Below, piece by piece: positions 9,071-15,369 of a stretch of DNA of 64,000 bases (position 1 is its first letter; every line of letters starts with the position of its first letter). A program made the translations under genes and the position numbers. The notes beneath the pieces were generated by a model. That model was given only the letters and a program-made list of their open reading frames with translations. It was not told the origin of the DNA and did not search any database. Source of the stretch: Escherichia coli (lineage in GTDB: Bacteria > Pseudomonadota > Gammaproteobacteria > Enterobacterales > Enterobacteriaceae); the NCBI RefSeq assembly GCF_011045215.1, contig NZ_CP049201.1. One strand, 5' to 3'.

Positions 9071-11899
9071 ATGGGTTTCCCGCTGTTTAAAAAGAAAGTG
9101 AAACCGGCAATATCTGCAGAGACGACCGTGTCAGCAGAATGCGCGCAGCATTCCGGAGGCGATGACGCCGGTACTCCCCGTAACCAGACCCGCCCCGGGC
9201 GAATGACCCGTCAGGAGGAGGCGAAGATTTACCATGCGGGCCCGTCCATTATTGATTTTCTGCCCTGGGTGGAATATCTGGATGAAGAGCAGTGCCTGCT
9301 GCTGGATGACGGAGTGTCGGTCGGTGCCGTGTATGAGGTGACACCTGCGGCCACGGAAGGGCGCACGGCAGAGCGTCTTGAGCAAATCCGTGACACGGTG
9401 GAGGATGCCCTGCAGGACAGCTTTGATGAATACGACACTCACCCCTGGGTGGTGCAGTTCTTCTGTCAGGATGAAAATGATGTGGATGCGTATCTTGACC
9501 ATCTGAGGGGGTATGTGAAGCCCCGTGCGCAGCACACCGCTTTTACAGAGGCCTGGCTGGGCGAGATGGAACGGCATCTGCGGGGAATTGCCCGCCCGGA
9601 AGGGCTTTTCACGGACACGCTGGTGACCGGTCAGCCCTGGCGTGGTCAGCAGCGACGGACCCGGATGGTGGTGTACCGCCGTATCGGGAAAAACAGCCAT
9701 GACCCGATGCCGCCGGTGGCGATGCTGAACCAGGTGTGTGAACGCGTGGTGGGGGCGCTGGGCGGGGCGGGGGTGCGCTGTACCCGTCTGAACGGTCTGC
9801 AGGTACATGGCTGGCTGCTCAGACTGTTCAATCCCCGGCCGGCGTGGGTGGACAGGGACACACTGTACCGTCTGGCCACCCGTGCAGCGCCGCAGGAGAC
9901 ACCGGAGGGCATGATGCCGGTGATGACCGACTTTGCAGAAAGTCTCTGGTTCACGCCGCCGGTGTCGGATCCGGAAAACGGCGTGTGGTGGCTGGACGGA
10001 CTTCCGCATGCCGCCGTGGTGGTGGAGAAACTGCGTACACCCCCGGAGGCAGGGACGCTGACCGGTGAGAAGGCCCGGGGCGAAAAGACGGTGAATGCCC
10101 TGATGGATACGTTCCCTGAAGGCACCATGCTGTGCATGACCATTGTGGTACAGCCGCAGGACACACTCGAGGAGCGTTTTACCCGTCTGTCAAAAAATGC
10201 GGTCGGGGAAAACACAGAGTCCATTCGTGCCCGTCAGGATGTGGCCACCGTGAAGGAATATCTGGGGAACCGCCACAAACTTTACCGGGCGGGGATCAGT
10301 TTTCTGTTACGGGCTGAGGATATGGACAGCCTGAAGCGTAAGCGGGTGGCCCTGACCACGGCACTGCTGGGCGCCGGCCTGCAGCCGGTACGCCCGGAGT
10401 TTGATGTGGGGCCACTGAACAGCTGGCTGCGCGCGCTGCCCATGTGTTTTGACCCGGATACGGACAGGAAGCAGTGGTACACGCGTCTGATGTGGGTGCA
10501 GCATCTGGCTGGTCTCCTGCCGGTGACCGGGCGGGAGACGGGCACCGGTCACCCCGGATTCAGTTTCTTTAACCGGGGTGGGGATGTGCTGACCTTTGAT
10601 CCGCTGAATAAACTGGACCGCACCCAGAATGCGCACCTGCTGCTGTTTGGTCCGACCGGCGCCGGGAAATCCGCCACGCTGTGCTCCTCGCTGTCGCAGA
10701 TCATGGCCGTACATCGCCCCCGTCTTTTTATTGCTGAAGCCGGGAACTCGTTCGGGCTGCTGGCGGATTATTTTGAGAGCCTCGGGCTGAGCGTCAACAA
10801 AATCAGCGTGAAACCGGGCACCGGTGTCAGCCTGCCACCGTTTGCGGATGCACATCACCTGGTGGCACAGGGACAGACCCTGCAGGATGTGGATGAACAG
10901 ACACTGCCGGATATTGATGATGACACGCAGGACGTGAATGAGGACCAGCGCGATATCCTGGGAGAAATGGAGATCTCTGCCCGCATGATGATCACCGGGG
11001 GGGATCCGAAGGAAGAGGCGGCACTCAAACGGGCGGACAGGGCGATGATCCGTGAAGCCCTGCTGATGGCCACGCACACCACATACCGGGAGGGACGCCA
11101 GATGCTGCCGGCGGATTTGCAGTCGGCACTGTGGGAAATCTCCCGGGACAGTCAGCGAAATGAACTCCGGCGGACGAAAGCGGCAGAGATGGCGGAAGCG
11201 CTGGGGATGTTCACTCAGCCGGGCAGTTTTGAAGCGGAGCTGTTTAACCGGGAGGGGGCGCTGTGGCCGGAAGCGGATGTGACGCTGATTGACCTGGGGC
11301 ATCTGGCCCGTGAAGGGTATGAAGCCCAGATGGCGCTGACCATGGTGTCGATGACCAACATGATTAACAACATCGCGGAGCGTGACCAGTATCTGGGGCG
11401 GGACATTCTGTTTGCGGTGGATGAGGCACACATTGTGACGGTGAATCCGTTGCTGTCCCCGTACATGACCAAGGTGGTGAAAATGTGGCGCAAGCTGGGC
11501 GCCTGGCTGTGGCTGGCCACGCAGAACCTGAAAGACTATCCGAATGTCGCCGAGAAGATGCTGAATATGGCCGAGTGGTGGGTGTGCCTGACCATGCCGC
11601 CGGAGGAGGTGAACAGCATTGCTCGTTTTAAGGCACTGACAGAGGAACAGAAAGCGGTGCTGCTGTCAGCCGGCAAACTGTCGGGGTGTTACACGGAAGG
11701 GGTGGTGCTGGCGAAGAAGGTGGAGGCGCTGTTCCGGGTGGTGCCCCCGAGTATTTACCTGGCGCTGGGGATGACGGAGAAGGAGGAGAAGGCGGAGCGC
11801 CGGGCGTTAATGAAAGCGCATCAGTGCAGCGAGCTGGAAGCCGCATTTCATGTGGCCCGGAAGCTGGACAGGCTGCGTGGGCTGGCTGACGGGGAGTAA
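9071..11899 (+). CDS. traC: Conjugative transfer ATPase (VirB4/TraC-like)
   Basis: 942-aa ORF with Walker A LLLFGPTGAGKSATL; size and position typical of VirB4-family ATPases. Confidence 0.85.
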   Translation: MGFPLFKKKVKPAISAETTVSAECAQHSGGDDAGTPRNQTRPGRMTRQEEAKIYHAGPSIIDFLPWVEYLDEEQCLLLDDGVSVGAVYEVTPAATEGRTAERLEQIRDTVEDALQDSFDEYDTHPWVVQFFCQDENDVDAYLDHLRGYVKPRAQHTAFTEAWLGEMERHLRGIARPEGLFTDTLVTGQPWRGQQRRTRMVVYRRIGKNSHDPMPPVAMLNQVCERVVGALGGAGVRCTRLNGLQVHGWLLRLFNPRPAWVDRDTLYRLATRAAPQETPEGMMPVMTDFAESLWFTPPVSDPENGVWWLDGLPHAAVVVEKLRTPPEAGTLTGEKARGEKTVNALMDTFPEGTMLCMTIVVQPQDTLEERFTRLSKNAVGENTESIRARQDVATVKEYLGNRHKLYRAGISFLLRAEDMDSLKRKRVALTTALLGAGLQPVRPEFDVGPLNSWLRALPMCFDPDTDRKQWYTRLMWVQHLAGLLPVTGRETGTGHPGFSFFNRGGDVLTFDPLNKLDRTQNAHLLLFGPTGAGKSATLCSSLSQIMAVHRPRLFIAEAGNSFGLLADYFESLGLSVNKISVKPGTGVSLPPFADAHHLVAQGQTLQDVDEQTLPDIDDDTQDVNEDQRDILGEMEISARMMITGGDPKEEAALKRADRAMIREALLMATHTTYREGRQMLPADLQSALWEISRDSQRNELRRTKAAEMAEALGMFTQPGSFEAELFNREGALWPEADVTLIDLGHLAREGYEAQMALTMVSMTNMINNIAERDQYLGRDILFAVDEAHIVTVNPLLSPYMTKVVKMWRKLGAWLWLATQNLKDYPNVAEKMLNMAEWWVCLTMPPEEVNSIARFKALTEEQKAVLLSAGKLSGCYTEGVVLAKKVEALFRVVPPSIYLALGMTEKEEKAERRALMKAHQCSELEAAFHVARKLDRLRGLADGE

Positions 11900-11903
11900 G
11901 ACG

Positions 11904-12284
11904 ATGCTGTGCCTGAAATATCCGGAGCCGGAAGAGGTGTCACAGGGGCATCCTGCCGGAAGTGTGTTTGTGCTGCCGCCACAGGGGCAGCCCGGTGCCA
12001 GCCGTGCCACCCGGGATAATCTTGAGCGTCTGCGCGGACATCTGCAGAAGCAACTGGGGCTGGTGACGCGTATCTGTTGCCAGCCTCAGCGTGTGGGGGT
12101 GAACAGCAGCGTGGCGGTGGCACTGGAAGGGGGGACGGGGCAAAAGGTGCATCTTCTGCTGACGGTAAGTGGTCATGAGGGCTGGCCGTCGGAGGAGGAG
12201 TATGCGCATCCCCGCTGGTATATCCCGGTGACCGATGCTGCTGATTTGTGTTATCTGCTGCTGTGGCTGGCTGAGTTACAGTGA
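11904..12284 (+). CDS. Hypothetical protein (126 aa) following the ATPase gene
   Basis: ATG 5 bp after the traC stop; same orientation; no recognisable motif. Confidence 0.4.
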   Translation: MLCLKYPEPEEVSQGHPAGSVFVLPPQGQPGASRATRDNLERLRGHLQKQLGLVTRICCQPQRVGVNSSVAVALEGGTGQKVHLLLTVSGHEGWPSEEEYAHPRWYIPVTDAADLCYLLLWLAELQ

Positions 12285-12383
12285 GGGGATATGTGCACTG
12301 ATTTTAATGCTGCTCCGGGGCTCGCACTGACCGGGATGACAGTGATATATGGCGTATTGCAGATTAAGTAAAGAGGATGAAGT

Positions 12384-12626
12384 ATGAACTCTGGTTATGA
12401 TTTACCGGGAGGGTTGGGGCCGGTAAGGGAACGGATAATCGATGACCCATGGTTTTTTCTGTCTGTCGCACTGATTCTGTTGGTCGTGGTATATGTCGTG
12501 TCACTGGGGCTGAAAGAAGTCATTTTCAGTGTCAGAAAGGGTAAAGGGAAGAGAAATATGCTCAGGAAGGCGTACCGCTCCCGGGGCTCTGCTGAGGTGC
12601 GGGGGATGAAAAAGTCTGAGAAATGA
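12384..12626 (+). CDS. Small membrane protein (80 aa)
   Basis: ORF with a central hydrophobic helix (FFLSVALILLVVVYVVSLGL), followed by a terminator. Confidence 0.4.
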   Translation: MNSGYDLPGGLGPVRERIIDDPWFFLSVALILLVVVYVVSLGLKEVIFSVRKGKGKRNMLRKAYRSRGSAEVRGMKKSEK

Positions 12627-12710
12627 ATCAGGTTATTATAAAAGGTGATATGTTTTTATTAGTATTACAGAACAGATATGTTATTTACAGCCTGATACAT
12701 TTTCCGTTTG

Positions 12711-12732
12711 CCGCACTCCGGTGCGGTTTTTT
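12711..12732 (+). terminator. Rho-independent terminator (CCGCAC-TCCG-GTGCGG followed by TTTTTT)
   Basis: Seen directly: 6-bp GC-rich stem, tetraloop and T-run about 85 bp after the 12384..12626 ORF. Confidence 0.6.
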
Positions 12733-12951
12733 CTTCCTGAATGTCTGTTTTTAACAGGGGCGCAGTGGCGGATGTGTATTCTGTGCTGCCCTGCGAGTAC
12801 CCGCAGAGTCATATCTGTTCATGAGCGATTCACATTGCTGCAGTTGAAATAACCCTGTACTTTTTGCAACAATATAAGGTGTTGGTAGTGTTTATTTTCC
12901 ATAATGACAAATCCGGAGTGATATTGCCTGCAGGTGGCGGGCATTTTTTTT

Positions 12952-13036
12952 AGTATATCTTCGCATGAGCCATTGCCATACCGCTGACTTTTTTTCGCGC
13001 TTACGTCACAGGTGATGGCTCAGCCGAAGATATACT
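12952..13036. repeat. Imperfect 26-bp inverted repeat with ~33-nt spacer
   Basis: Seen directly: AGTATATCTTCGCATGAGCCATTGCC (12952-12977) and GGTGATGGCTCAGCCGAAGATATACT (13011-13036) are near reverse complements. Confidence 0.5.
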
Positions 13037-13053
13037 GGTTGCAGAGATGAAGT

Positions 13054-13257
13054 ATGGCTGTTCGTTATAAAATTACGGCAATAATAATGAAGCCCGGTAA
13101 TCCACCGGTGCTCTGGACCCGTTACTCCGGAAATAAAATGACCCGGGCTGAGTGTGAGAATATGTTTTCCATTCCAAAAGAGCCTGGTCGTTCTTTTGGC
13201 GATAAGGTAAAAGTACAGGATTTTCTGTGTGTGGCGGTTGAAGGTGAAAAAGTCTGA
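13054..13257 (+). CDS. Small hypothetical protein (67 aa)
   Basis: ORF immediately downstream of the inverted repeat and followed by a terminator; coding status uncertain. Confidence 0.3.
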   Translation: MAVRYKITAIIMKPGNPPVLWTRYSGNKMTRAECENMFSIPKEPGRSFGDKVKVQDFLCVAVEGEKV

Positions 13258-13382
13258 AAATGCCATGTTGCAATAAAAATGAATGTTATATGATGATAAC
13301 ATCCGGGTTGCCAGGTGAACTGGCTCATGATGATATGATGAGGCATGAACGCTAAACCTCCTTACATTGAGACGTAATTTTT

Positions 13383-13407
13383 CCGGGCCTGGTTGCCCGG
13401 TTTTTTT
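13383..13407 (+). terminator. Rho-independent terminator (CCGGGC-CTGGTT-GCCCGG followed by TTTTTTT)
   Basis: Seen directly. Confidence 0.55.
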
Positions 13408-13608
13408 ATTACGGAATACACAAAAATCCGAAATGCGATATATGAACGGAACTTACGGGCAGTAATATTCTGTGAGTTTTCCCGGTGGCATACCTGTGCC
13501 ATGAGCGCCTTGTTCTGATGCCTTGTGGGCTGACAGGCAATAACAATATAGTGTGAAAAATGCCTGATTTCAGCGTGCCGTGGTTCCTCCGGATAATACA
13601 CCGTTGAA

Positions 13609-13824
13609 TTATTTTCTGAAAAACTTTCTGAGCAGGGCGCCAGCGATTAATAAGCCACTGCATATCAGTATGAGCAGAATTGAGACGCCAAAAGCGGGAG
13701 GTGGGCATTCCCATTCATTCGGGCATTCCCCGTTCAGATAAACAATGTATGTGCTGGTTGCGATATAACCCGCAATCAGTATTATCAGCACCAGTATGGT
13801 GTTAAATATTTTATACATCGGCAT
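13609..13824 (-). CDS. Small two-helix membrane protein (about 69-71 aa) with a CPNEWEC loop
   Basis: GGAG RBS just upstream of two in-frame ATGs; two long hydrophobic segments. Confidence 0.4.
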   Translation of the reverse strand: MPMYKIFNTILVLIILIAGYIATSTYIVYLNGECPNEWECPPPAFGVSILLILICSGLLIAGALLRKFFRK

Positions 13825-14002
13825 ACTCCGTGATTGTCCTGTGTCCTCTCCGGGATTCTGACAGCGCTCCGGGCTGATTGTTCATGAATTTTACCTGTTG
13901 CTCTTCCCGTTAATTTTCAGTATCCGGTTTTGAATTAATTGATGACCCTGCTTCCGGTTCTGCGCACGCTGTCAGGTATGTATTGCCTGACGGAGTCATT
14001 CC

Positions 14003-14398
14003 ATGTACCGGAAGCTGTTGTATTCCTTTCTTGCCCTGCCGGTGATATCAGTTGCCGGCACTGCCGTTTATACCGACTCGGCACATTTGCCGGTTAATCC
14101 GCCCCCTGATGTACAGGTTGTGTTGCTCGACGGGCCACAGCAACTGCAGGATGCTTTTTTCGGCCCGTTGCCGGCTGACCCTGAAGCTGCTGAGGTGGTT
14201 GTTCGTGAGCACATGCAGTCCCCTGAATGGCAGTCTGTACAGGCTGACCTTGCAGACCGTTACCGCCAGGTGACCCACGCCTGGTCGCTGGGGCTTAAAA
14301 AATACCCTGCGGTGGTGTTCGATGACCGGGAAGTGGTGTACGGCACCACCGATGTGGCACAGGCTGAACGACTCCGGAGTCAGGGAGGTCAGCCATGA
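14003..14398 (+). CDS. Secreted ICE protein (131 aa) with signal peptide
   Basis: N-terminal signal (LALPVISVAG); start of the second T4SS sub-cluster. Confidence 0.55.
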   Translation: MYRKLLYSFLALPVISVAGTAVYTDSAHLPVNPPPDVQVVLLDGPQQLQDAFFGPLPADPEAAEVVVREHMQSPEWQSVQADLADRYRQVTHAWSLGLKKYPAVVFDDREVVYGTTDVAQAERLRSQGGQP

Positions 14399-15369
14399 CG
14401 GGTCTGCGAACACGACGTTATGCTGGCGCATTTTTGTTGTGGACAGCGACTGTTTCTGTGGCTGACGCTTCCCTGAATACGGCACAGATAGTGGCCGGTG
14501 CCATTTCTCAGAGCTGCATCAGCTGGCGGGTCAGTGGTATCTGTTACTGGCTGCACTGCTCCTGGTCGGGGTGTCGGGTCAGAACGTCCGTGAAGGTCTC
14601 ACATTTTATTCCTGAAGCCGTGGTGTCCACCTATACCGCACCGGGTGGTAACCCCTGGCGGGAGATGGCTCTGGTCAGTCAGACATCCGGCGGTGTGGAG
14701 AACGCCATCAGCAGCGGGATTGCCGGGCTGTCTGCCGGCGGGGGAAACCCGGCAGATATGAAATCGCCGGGGCAGCGTAAATCTGCTATCCGTTTCAGAT
14801 ACGCGGATGCGCTGGGACATCCGGCCACGTTGCTTATCGGGGGCAGCATTCCCGGGTATTCGTGTGAATCAGCTGCCACACCACTGAGGCCTTATTTTCT
14901 CAGCACACTGGACAGTCTTGCCTGGCGCACCGGCATGCCTGAATCCCTTTATCCCGAAGCCATGATACCCGGCAGACGGGAGCTGGGAAGCCAGCGCAAT
15001 GCGGACATGTGGGGAAATATCTACCCCCGTTCCGGTTTTGTCAGCCAGACCGATGATGACAAAGCGGCTGCCCTGGTGGCCCAGCGGGTGGCGGATATTA
15101 TCACCCGCACCGGTGAGCCCCACGTCTATCAGTCTCTGCAGGGCCGAAAAAAAGATGGCTACTGGCCACCGGATGCGGTGGAAGAAAACACCGGCACCCG
15201 TAATCACAAGTGGCAGCGCCTGACCCCTTCTGTTTCTTCATCCTGCGCCGTGTTTCCGGATGGCAGCCATGCCGCGCCGGAGGACGGTAATGCCGCTTTT
15301 GCCCTGTGGCGTCCCTACAGTTGCTGTAAAAAGCGGGGCCAGAAATTCCTGGGCAGTACGAATTTTTAG
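14395..15369 (+). CDS. ICE T4SS periplasmic protein (TraU-like, tentative)
   Basis: Start overlaps previous stop; signal peptide; Cys- and Trp-rich 324-aa protein. Confidence 0.55.
   Translation: MTGLRTRRYAGAFLLWTATVSVADASLNTAQIVAGAISQSCISWRVSGICYWLHCSWSGCRVRTSVKVSHFIPEAVVSTYTAPGGNPWREMALVSQTSGGVENAISSGIAGLSAGGGNPADMKSPGQRKSAIRFRYADALGHPATLLIGGSIPGYSCESAATPLRPYFLSTLDSLAWRTGMPESLYPEAMIPGRRELGSQRNADMWGNIYPRSGFVSQTDDDKAAALVAQRVADIITRTGEPHVYQSLQGRKKDGYWPPDAVEENTGTRNHKWQRLTPSVSSSCAVFPDGSHAAPEDGNAAFALWRPYSCCKKRGQKFLGSTNF

Follow-up and report, generated by a model that had tools for sequence, protein, structure and literature searches.

Integrative and conjugative elements (ICEs) of the SXT/R391 family carry variable cargo, including phage-defence genes, at hotspots HS1-HS5 between conserved transfer operons, and their core functions remain undisturbed. 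Here we analyse a stretch of 64,000 nt from Escherichia coli (contig NZ_CP049201.1 of assembly GCF_011045215.1; hereafter the window), in which a gap at positions 12285-14002 splits the type IV secretion system (T4SS) genes of another ICE. Its likeness to HS1-HS5 is one of arrangement; the ICE family (MPF_F in SXT/R391, MPF_G in the window), the border genes and the cargo all differ. A closer match is GI-Hotspot 3, the region between TraU and TraC of PAPI-1/PAGI-5, ICEs of Pseudomonas aeruginosa, where defence systems occur in 13% of instances and whose reported range extends to Serratia and further genera (Garrett et al. 2025, PMC12629846). Judged by junction position and gene families, the gap in the window would be the enterobacterial counterpart of that hotspot: the ICE class is the same, the site lies between a TraC-like ATPase (PF11130) and TraU (PF06834), the content is variable with defence systems in a minority of instances, and the hotspot extends beyond Pseudomonas. 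The window differs in its enterobacterial lineage, in its immediate borders, which are an extra conserved 126-aa open reading frame (ORF) and a TIGR03757 gene, and in holding no known defence or anti-defence gene. The hotspot of the Escherichia/Salmonella lineage also has a resident module built around a DUF1187 gene, which goes unmentioned in PMC12629846. We conclude that the segment is very probably an inter-operon cargo hotspot of an MPF_G-type ICE, in which low-GC modules lie between two T4SS operons.

The element belongs to the MPF_G type of ICE (TIGR037xx genes; PAPI-1/SPI-7/SGI-4-like). In locus L001, which is 98% identical to the window, the annotated order runs TIGR03752, TIGR03751 lipoprotein, conjugative transfer ATPase, 126-aa hypothetical protein, DUF1187, TIGR03757, TIGR03756, ICE protein and TraG_N. 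To the left of the gap, the conjugative transfer ATPase gene (9071-11899), whose homologue carries PF11130 TraC_F_IV, is followed by the 126-aa ORF (11904-12284, plus strand), an ICE backbone gene annotated as 'hypothetical' or 'acetyltransferase' that is 90-98% identical across all E. coli relatives and closes the conserved part of the upstream ATPase operon. To the right, the TIGR03757 (DUF1525) gene (14003-14398, plus strand; 126 bits with NCBIfam, cut-off 73.2) opens the TraU/TraG-proximal operon and is followed by TIGR03756/PF06834 TraU and by TraG_N. Conserved ICE T4SS genes of the TraC-family ATPase and TraU families therefore border the gap.

Base composition sets the gap apart from these borders, with a GC content of 0.42-0.47 in 300-nt windows between 12350 and 13850 against 0.57-0.66 on either side. 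The initial annotation had described an AT-rich interval of about 1.7 kb without a large ORF, holding two small plus-strand ORFs, and this description holds: overall GC is about 0.44 versus about 0.60 in the flanking T4SS genes (0.446 in L001, between flanks of 0.601 and 0.574), the small ORFs lie at 12384-12626 and 13054-13257, and no ORF exceeds 101 aa. The two longest, of 101 aa and 98 aa and both on the minus strand, gave no family match in profile searches that included NCBIfam, and a PADLOC search of the window returned no match. The same annotation had counted two intrinsic terminators; such terminators are indeed present, but the strong plus-strand sites number three (T1, T2 and T3), each a predicted Rho-independent terminator with a GC-rich stem-loop and a U-run and with z-scores from -2.2 to -3.2. 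The scan as a whole gave seven terminator-like sites, compared with 3.2 +/- 1.8 in shuffled sequences.

In order to compare the gap among E. coli ICEs, a 3.5-kb query around it was searched against 5426 complete E. coli genomes, 69 of which matched, and the window was compared by BLAST with a set of 12 E. coli loci. The gap spans about 1.3 to 2.3 kb in seven annotated relatives, and its content differs between otherwise syntenic elements. Backbone sequence is conserved up to 12288 and again from 13908 onward. Between these limits, the segment 12289-12600 with a 26-aa and an 80-aa ORF is present, truncated or deleted in relatives; the segment at about 12600-12740, which includes T1, is kept by most; a variable spacer at 12741-12918 has a BLAST match only in L001 and L007; and 12919-13409 (T2, a hairpin, the DUF1187 gene and T3) is found at 77-99% identity in every examined variant that retains this part of the gap. 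The right half, 13410-13907, is variable. It holds a minus-strand gene for a 69-aa membrane protein (p69) in the window, L001 and L002, a 37%-identical homologue of p69 in L003, and a minus-strand DsbA gene in L004 and L005. In L011, DsbA is followed on the same strand by a 75-aa p69 homologue; in L014, DsbA is accompanied by an ion-channel gene and an LptA-like gene; L006 has only DsbA remnants; and L007 carries an insertion of IS1414.

The same junction is variable across Enterobacterales. Scanning one genome per species with an alignment of TIGR03757 yielded 79 loci, and among all loci examined the gap could be measured in the 45 where both the end of the ATPase gene and the start of TIGR03757 were placeable. 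A homologue of the 126-aa ORF follows the ATPase in 36 of these 45 loci, including SGI-4 and a Klebsiella element, and the gap after it ranges from 244 bp (L092-L094) to more than 5 kb. Gap GC is nearly always below that of both flanks, typically by 10-20 points (for example, 0.33-0.45 versus 0.55-0.60). This mosaic, low-GC content in related ICEs strongly supports the earlier suggestion of an insertion-like variable hotspot. Large ORFs of the relatives at this junction also match known or candidate anti-phage systems, namely IetA/IetS (L055 2334-5840; L078 2165-5616), Tmn (L030 1850-5650; 624 bits), PDC-S06 (L097 3206-5800 and L035; 1059 bits), the SIR2-like PDC-S65 (L079 4053-5867; 757 bits) and an AbiU/AIPR-like gene (L083 4124-5878). 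Further cargo comprises a PDC-M26A-like gene (L057 1097-5512) and, in L077 and L068, an intimin-like inverse autotransporter, which is an adhesin and no defence system. Large junction ORFs in L057 and L040 (839 aa) have weak defence-family matches or none, and could be new defence candidates.

These comparisons point to a general pattern, in which MPF_G-type ICEs keep a site open to cargo between the operons of the TraC-like ATPase and of TraU. Phage-defence systems, type I toxins, adhesins and small envelope proteins gather at this site across Enterobacterales, which makes the TraC-TraU junction of enterobacterial ICEs a promising target in the search for new defence or anti-defence genes. 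With a cargo of three small genes, the gap in the window is a lightly loaded new instance of a hotspot type already described in Pseudomonas.

A probable organization can be proposed from the terminators and the conserved segments. The upstream T4SS operon, made up of the ATPase gene, the 126-aa ORF and, when present, the 80-aa ORF (p80), would end at T1, while the downstream operon, from TIGR03757 through TraU and on to TraG, would start from a conserved leader of 95 bp (13908-14002, plus strand). From 13908-13910 on, all E. coli variants are again homologous to the window, and this backbone leader probably holds the promoter region of the downstream operon. Horizontally acquired low-GC modules would accumulate between the two operons and be swapped by recombination, with neither operon disturbed. 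Two modules are proposed for the window. The first is a terminator-insulated unit of T2, hairpin, DUF1187 gene and T3, in which a leader hairpin formed in the sense RNA would stabilise, process or regulate the DUF1187 mRNA; the second is a divergently oriented cassette of about 335 bp whose product would be a two-pass inner-membrane protein of 69 aa with a periplasmic Cys-pair loop. The data show directly how variable the gap is, where its modules end, that the DUF1187 and p69 genes are coding, that the hairpin has a strand bias and what the hotspot contains in other elements, while the operon ends, what the hairpin does, how p69 sits in the membrane and every biochemical function are inferred.

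T1 (12710-12733, scan site 12710-12727; plus strand) combines a stem of seven pairs with a downstream U-run (-13.2 kcal/mol, z -3.2), and its segment is 92-100% conserved in L005, L006, L011 and L015; the upstream T4SS operon probably stops at this terminator. Upstream of it lies p80 (12384-12626, plus strand), an 80-aa single-pass membrane ORF whose exact sequence is public in a 24-member cluster from E. coli and Salmonella. Its core is formed by the first 48 or so residues, and the C-terminal tail is variable: relatives in L003, L004 and L011 are 60-63 aa long and share the N-terminus and transmembrane segment, whereas the ORF is deleted in L002, L005, L006, L014 and L015. No match to p80 was found in Pfam, NCBIfam, PHROG or PADLOC. 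Because it lies in sense orientation between the 126-aa ORF and T1, p80 is probably a tail that the upstream operon can do without. Immediately behind the 126-aa ORF, a further 26-aa ORF (12291-12371, plus strand) of uncertain gene status is kept only in L001, L007 and L003, at 75-100% identity, and had no family match in profile searches.

The end of p80 may also record an earlier rearrangement of the gap. A second DUF1187 3' end survives there as a vestige that overlaps the last p80 codons, is read in another frame ('...GDEKV*') and continues into downstream sequence (12600-12654, plus strand). A 16-nt direct repeat joins the two places (12607-12622 and 13245-13260), and a local alignment of 12606-12654 with 13244-13287 scores 34, compared with 17.3 +/- 2.5 in shuffles. 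The vestige is kept directly after the 126-aa ORF in L005 and L006, although p80 is deleted there, and L002 contains a second copy of the DUF1187 3' region together with its terminator (L002 3149-3329). These duplicates of the DUF1187 3' end may be recombination scars, and recombination between DUF1187 3' regions may be one route by which the hotspot is reshuffled.

The DUF1187 gene (13054-13257, plus strand) encodes a protein of 67 aa from the YdaC/RcbA family. Residues 5-62 of the 67 match Pfam PF06688 (E 1.9e-21), which places the product within the family; it also matches PHROG 5753, of unknown function (E 7.9e-22), scores 84.3 bits with NCBIfam PRK09750, under the 92-bit cut-off, and is 51% identical to YdaC of the Rac prophage. 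The ORF is intact in every examined E. coli ICE variant in which this part of the gap is preserved. Among the ICE copies, pairwise dN/dS is 0.10-0.34 at dS values of up to 1.0, variable sites fall on the three codon positions in the numbers 22, 28 and 51, and two ydaC copies from Rac-type phages (L101 2498-2686; L102 2486-2686) differ by eight synonymous changes and one non-synonymous change. Since the ORF stays intact and the dN/dS values, codon positions and synonymous changes all follow a coding pattern, the DUF1187/YdaC family evolves as a protein-coding gene under purifying selection.

Two terminators mark the edges of the module around this gene. T2 (12925-12951, scan site 12925-12943; plus strand) consists of a 7-pair stem and eight U residues (-11.7 kcal/mol, z -2.2), and in the alignment its stem sequence varies between loci while the pairing is retained; it forms the left end of the mobile DUF1187 module. 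T3 (13383-13407, scan site 13383-13400; plus strand) has a stem of six GC pairs and seven U residues (-13.0 kcal/mol, z -2.9) and forms the right end, as module homology stops at 13407-13409 in L002, L004-L006 and L014. The module, with T2, hairpin, gene and usually T3, is also found outside ICEs, in islands rich in insertion sequences (ISs) and on an IncF plasmid, with DsbA as a neighbour twice. Some E. coli genomes hold the hairpin and DUF1187 module in two or three copies, probably reflecting multiple copies of the ICE. E. coli C5 (NZ_CP010122.1), for example, has three hairpin matches, one of them at 1292327-1292427; over the hairpin, this copy shows 100% identity to the window, and L001, from the same genome, is 98% identical.

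The family also includes ydaC of the Rac prophage. There, the strand opposite ydaC encodes RalA, a 179-nt small RNA (sRNA) that acts as antitoxin of the RalR DNase; ydaC overlaps the stop codon of the ralR toxin gene, the RalR/RalA pairing spans 16 nt, and ydaC itself was concluded to make no protein (Guo et al. 2014, PMC4041452). The Rac gene and the window gene belong to the same Pfam family, and each is a small accessory gene of a mobile element. Their surroundings differ, because ydaC has ralR upstream and RalA antisense to it in the Rac-type order recE-recT-ralR-ydaC-xis-int, whereas the window gene has neither and follows a terminator and a 26-pair hairpin instead. A RalR/RalA type I toxin-antitoxin pair can be rejected for the window, as both components are absent although the control on Rac worked: the RalA model (RF02694) found no match in the window at E<=1 or in 12900-13450 (551 nt) at E<=10 but scored 218.5 bits on Rac-SA53, and tblastn with RalR against the window and related loci gave only matches at E>0.3. 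The selection on protein sequence in both the ICE and the Rac-type copies stands against the experimental conclusion that Rac ydaC makes no protein.

The 26-bp imperfect inverted repeat pointed out in the initial annotation was recovered with both arms (12952-12973 and 13015-13036) and folds into a 26-pair imperfect hairpin upstream of DUF1187 (12950-13037, plus strand; -38.4 kcal/mol, z -4.0). Standard pairs occupy 94.7% of alignment cells over the 26 pairs in 13 loci, the centre and loop are almost invariant, and conservation is far above that of synonymous sites in the adjacent gene. Read on the plus strand, the alignment has 63 G-U cells over about 15 pairs and only three A-C cells, an asymmetry which is consistent with reading of the structure on the plus strand, as a sense RNA upstream of DUF1187, and inconsistent with a minus-strand structure or a symmetric DNA operator. 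The RNA reading draws mainly on this asymmetry. The hairpin probably lies in the leader of the DUF1187 mRNA, where it leaves the Shine-Dalgarno region and the ATG uncovered, and its length, along with the internal loop between its two stems, would be compatible with a role as stabilising 5' hairpin or as RNase III site. A regulatory RNA had been suggested for the gap before; the conserved sense-strand hairpin agrees with that suggestion in part, but no known RNA family, RalA included, was matched in Rfam, whether over 11500-14800 (E<=1) or over 12900-13450 (E<=10).

The repeat might instead act as DNA, either as a hairpin of the transferred single strand that serves as promoter or priming site, as a recombination site, or as a double-stranded operator for divergent promoters. 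The near-invariant loop would be unusual for a simple RNA hairpin, TATACT-like -10 hexamers occur in both arms, a minus-strand promoter-like match spans 12979-12952, DNA hairpins also tolerate G-T wobbles, and the mobile module is bordered by duplicated 3'-end segments. However, the wobble bias (63 versus 3 cells) falls on the plus strand, while a single-stranded DNA promoter for DUF1187 would need the hairpin on the minus (template) strand; the 41-nt distance between the arms is too great for a simple dimeric operator; neither an attC-like core nor any Rfam or repeat-family match was found; and the low copy number excludes a miniature inverted-repeat transposable element (MITE). We consider a DNA-level role unlikely and favour the sense-RNA leader. 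Several specific candidates were rejected. A MITE, REP, ERIC or other host repeat does not fit a hairpin that is low-copy and lineage-restricted, being present in 42 of the 5426 E. coli genomes at one to three places each and always with the DUF1187 module. An attC-like site was dismissed by eye, as the ends mismatch the core and inverse-core motifs, and a Frpo-like single-stranded promoter for DUF1187 is disfavoured by a wobble bias on the wrong strand. A leader peptide in the loop is discounted since a T-run that varies in length from 6 to 8 breaks any frame, and an sRNA from the 3' untranslated region after DUF1187 was discarded because the fold was not significant (z -1.6).

Several observations count against the organization proposed above. 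The operon boundaries that it assumes would follow from terminator motifs and conservation only. No sigma-70-like promoter for DUF1187 was found between T2 and the ATG, by scan or by eye, so that placing the hairpin in the mRNA requires read-through of T2 or an unrecognised promoter. The covariation control for the hairpin was not significant, with 75 of 500 shuffles reaching the observed pairing, although this control is uninformative because the hairpin is nearly invariant. Finally, family and structure searches with the DUF1187, p69 and p80 products gave no assigned function.

As for what the DUF1187 product might do, a literature search on 'DUF1187' returned nothing. The published phenotype of rcbA is reportedly a reduced number of chromosome breaks. 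One speculative reading is that DUF1187 is a true protein, its expression governed by the leader hairpin, that shields incoming mobile DNA as an anti-defence or DNA-protection factor, for instance by inhibiting a host nuclease; we rate this as a long shot. Were it true, it would explain why DUF1187 is found in all examined E. coli ICE variants that keep this part of the gap, at a site that elsewhere holds defence systems, why members of the family sit beside ralR and recET in Rac-type prophages, and the rcbA phenotype, and the view of ydaC as a non-coding host of RalA would be incomplete. Apart from any such role, DUF1187/YdaC behaves as a protein-coding gene.

The second module is a cassette of about 335 bp (13573-13907, minus strand) that consists of the p69 gene and 88 nt upstream of it. 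It is an insertion relative to the DsbA-type variants, with the microhomology 'TTTCAG' at the junction; in L004 and L006, sequence matching 13509-13570 abuts backbone that matches 13908 onward. The stretch 13609-13906 recurs at 84.5% identity in a non-ICE island of L012 and L013. A minus-strand two-helix peptide had been proposed at 13609-13824, and the ORF exists as called, but the likely start is the second ATG at 13818, with GGAG 7 nt upstream and with database homologues of 69 aa, so that the gene spans 13609-13818. The family includes 13 homologues at 69-96% identity, besides the 37%-identical copy at the same site in L003, and conserves two hydrophobic helices and the loop YLNGxCxxxxECPPxAFG. 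Pairwise dN/dS is 0.08-0.39 (0.17-0.23 for the most divergent pairs), and p69 is thus protein-coding and under purifying selection. The AlphaFold2 (AF2) model is a helical hairpin. The N- and C-terminal ends are basic, and by the positive-inside rule p69 is predicted to be an N-in, C-in inner-membrane protein whose acidic Cys-pair loop would be periplasmic.

The family is very narrow, as an exhaustive profile search of 1.84 billion representative proteins recovered only five clusters at 50% identity. It had no match in Pfam, NCBIfam, PHROG or PADLOC and no informative match in the PDB, and tblastn against PLSDB gave none on plasmids. Its members are encoded in the ICE hotspot, either alone or downstream of DsbA (L011 4170-5228), in omptin/DUF4354/DsbA/DUF535 islands (L012 3445-7185; L013), and in an omptin/DUF4354/MacAB-TolC cargo region beside an ICE relaxase (L019 1-6237). 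These contexts suggest a loose neighbourhood of envelope-protein genes. The gene for this narrowly distributed 69-aa Cys-loop membrane protein moves within a small cassette, at times in the company of DsbA or omptin genes. The Cys pair of the loop could be a DsbA substrate, and p69 could be the founder of a new family of DsbA-associated small envelope proteins.

The peptide had first been regarded as a possible type I toxin. In a broader form of this idea, p69 (13609-13818, or 13609-13824 as called) or p80 would serve as toxin in a type I toxin-antitoxin system for the stable maintenance of the ICE, with an unannotated antisense or adjacent sRNA as antitoxin. Both products are small and hydrophobic, and the 16-nt repeat that links the 3' ends of p80 and DUF1187 recalls the 16-nt RalR/RalA pairing at Rac (PMC4041452), although it is better explained as a vestigial DUF1187 3' end. 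The same hotspot does contain DinQ-like type I toxins annotated by PGAP, DqlB and DinQ, in SGI-4 of Salmonella and in the Klebsiella michiganensis element (L020 6998-7093; L021 6194-6277), where the genes stand between the 126-aa ORF homologue and TIGR03757, just upstream of the latter. The type I toxin idea therefore holds for the site but not for the window. DinQ and DqlB resemble p69 as small hydrophobic peptides encoded at the same junction; they are single-helix peptides of 27-31 aa from curated families, whereas p69, which has two helices and a Cys-pair loop, is not related to them, and no DinQ-like ORF is present in the window. Neither p69 nor p80 matched any type I toxin model at E<=0.1 in NCBIfam, whose models PGAP used for DinQ/DqlB, or any Pfam family. 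No Rfam antitoxin RNA was found, with the RalA model failing at E<=10, and a scan antisense to p69 found only weak promoter and terminator motifs. The conserved Cys-pair loop between two transmembrane helices and the purifying selection on p69 are those of an ordinary membrane protein, and p80 is often truncated or deleted without loss of any partner. A toxin-antitoxin role for either protein is very improbable, and we prefer to regard p69 as a small envelope protein and p80 as a probable operon tail.

The location of both genes inside the T4SS block, together with their predicted inner-membrane products and the sense orientation of p80 at the tail of the ATPase operon, would also be compatible with the exclusion function first suggested for the gap, in the form of an entry-exclusion or immunity factor directed against redundant transfer of the same ICE. 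Such a role is highly doubtful for p69 and p80: neither resembles known exclusion proteins of the TraS, Eex or TrbK types in Pfam or NCBIfam, both are missing from many close ICEs with the same T4SS, and p69 also occurs outside ICEs, beside omptin, DUF4354 and DsbA genes. The presence of two or three copies of the element in some E. coli genomes likewise argues against strong exclusion.

Three narrower assignments were rejected for p69. Its resemblance to VirB2/TrbC pilins is at chance level and confined to one hydrophobic helix (NCBIfam TrbC E 0.049, 13.5 bits against a 179-bit cut-off; PDB 9vf4 E 6.6), and the N-terminal extension is lacking, as MYKIF stands directly before helix 1. A holin is discounted by the lack of a PHROG match and of lysis genes nearby. 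A DsbB-like partner role was set aside as well, since it would draw on co-location with DsbA only in L011 and, loosely, in L012/L013, and the pair is absent from the window.

Two small features lie near the right border of the hotspot. Upstream of p69, the region 13819-13906 (minus strand) has C(C/A)GGAG three times as direct repeats, together with a -10-like hexamer, TAAAAT (13893-13888), which in the non-ICE copy of L012 is preceded by TG and forms an extended -10. In the backbone leader, a hairpin of 12 pairs at 13966-13996 (-17 kcal/mol; core stem 13969-13993, z only -1.7) terminates in the GGAG Shine-Dalgarno sequence of the TIGR03757 gene, and could serve in translational control of the downstream T4SS operon.

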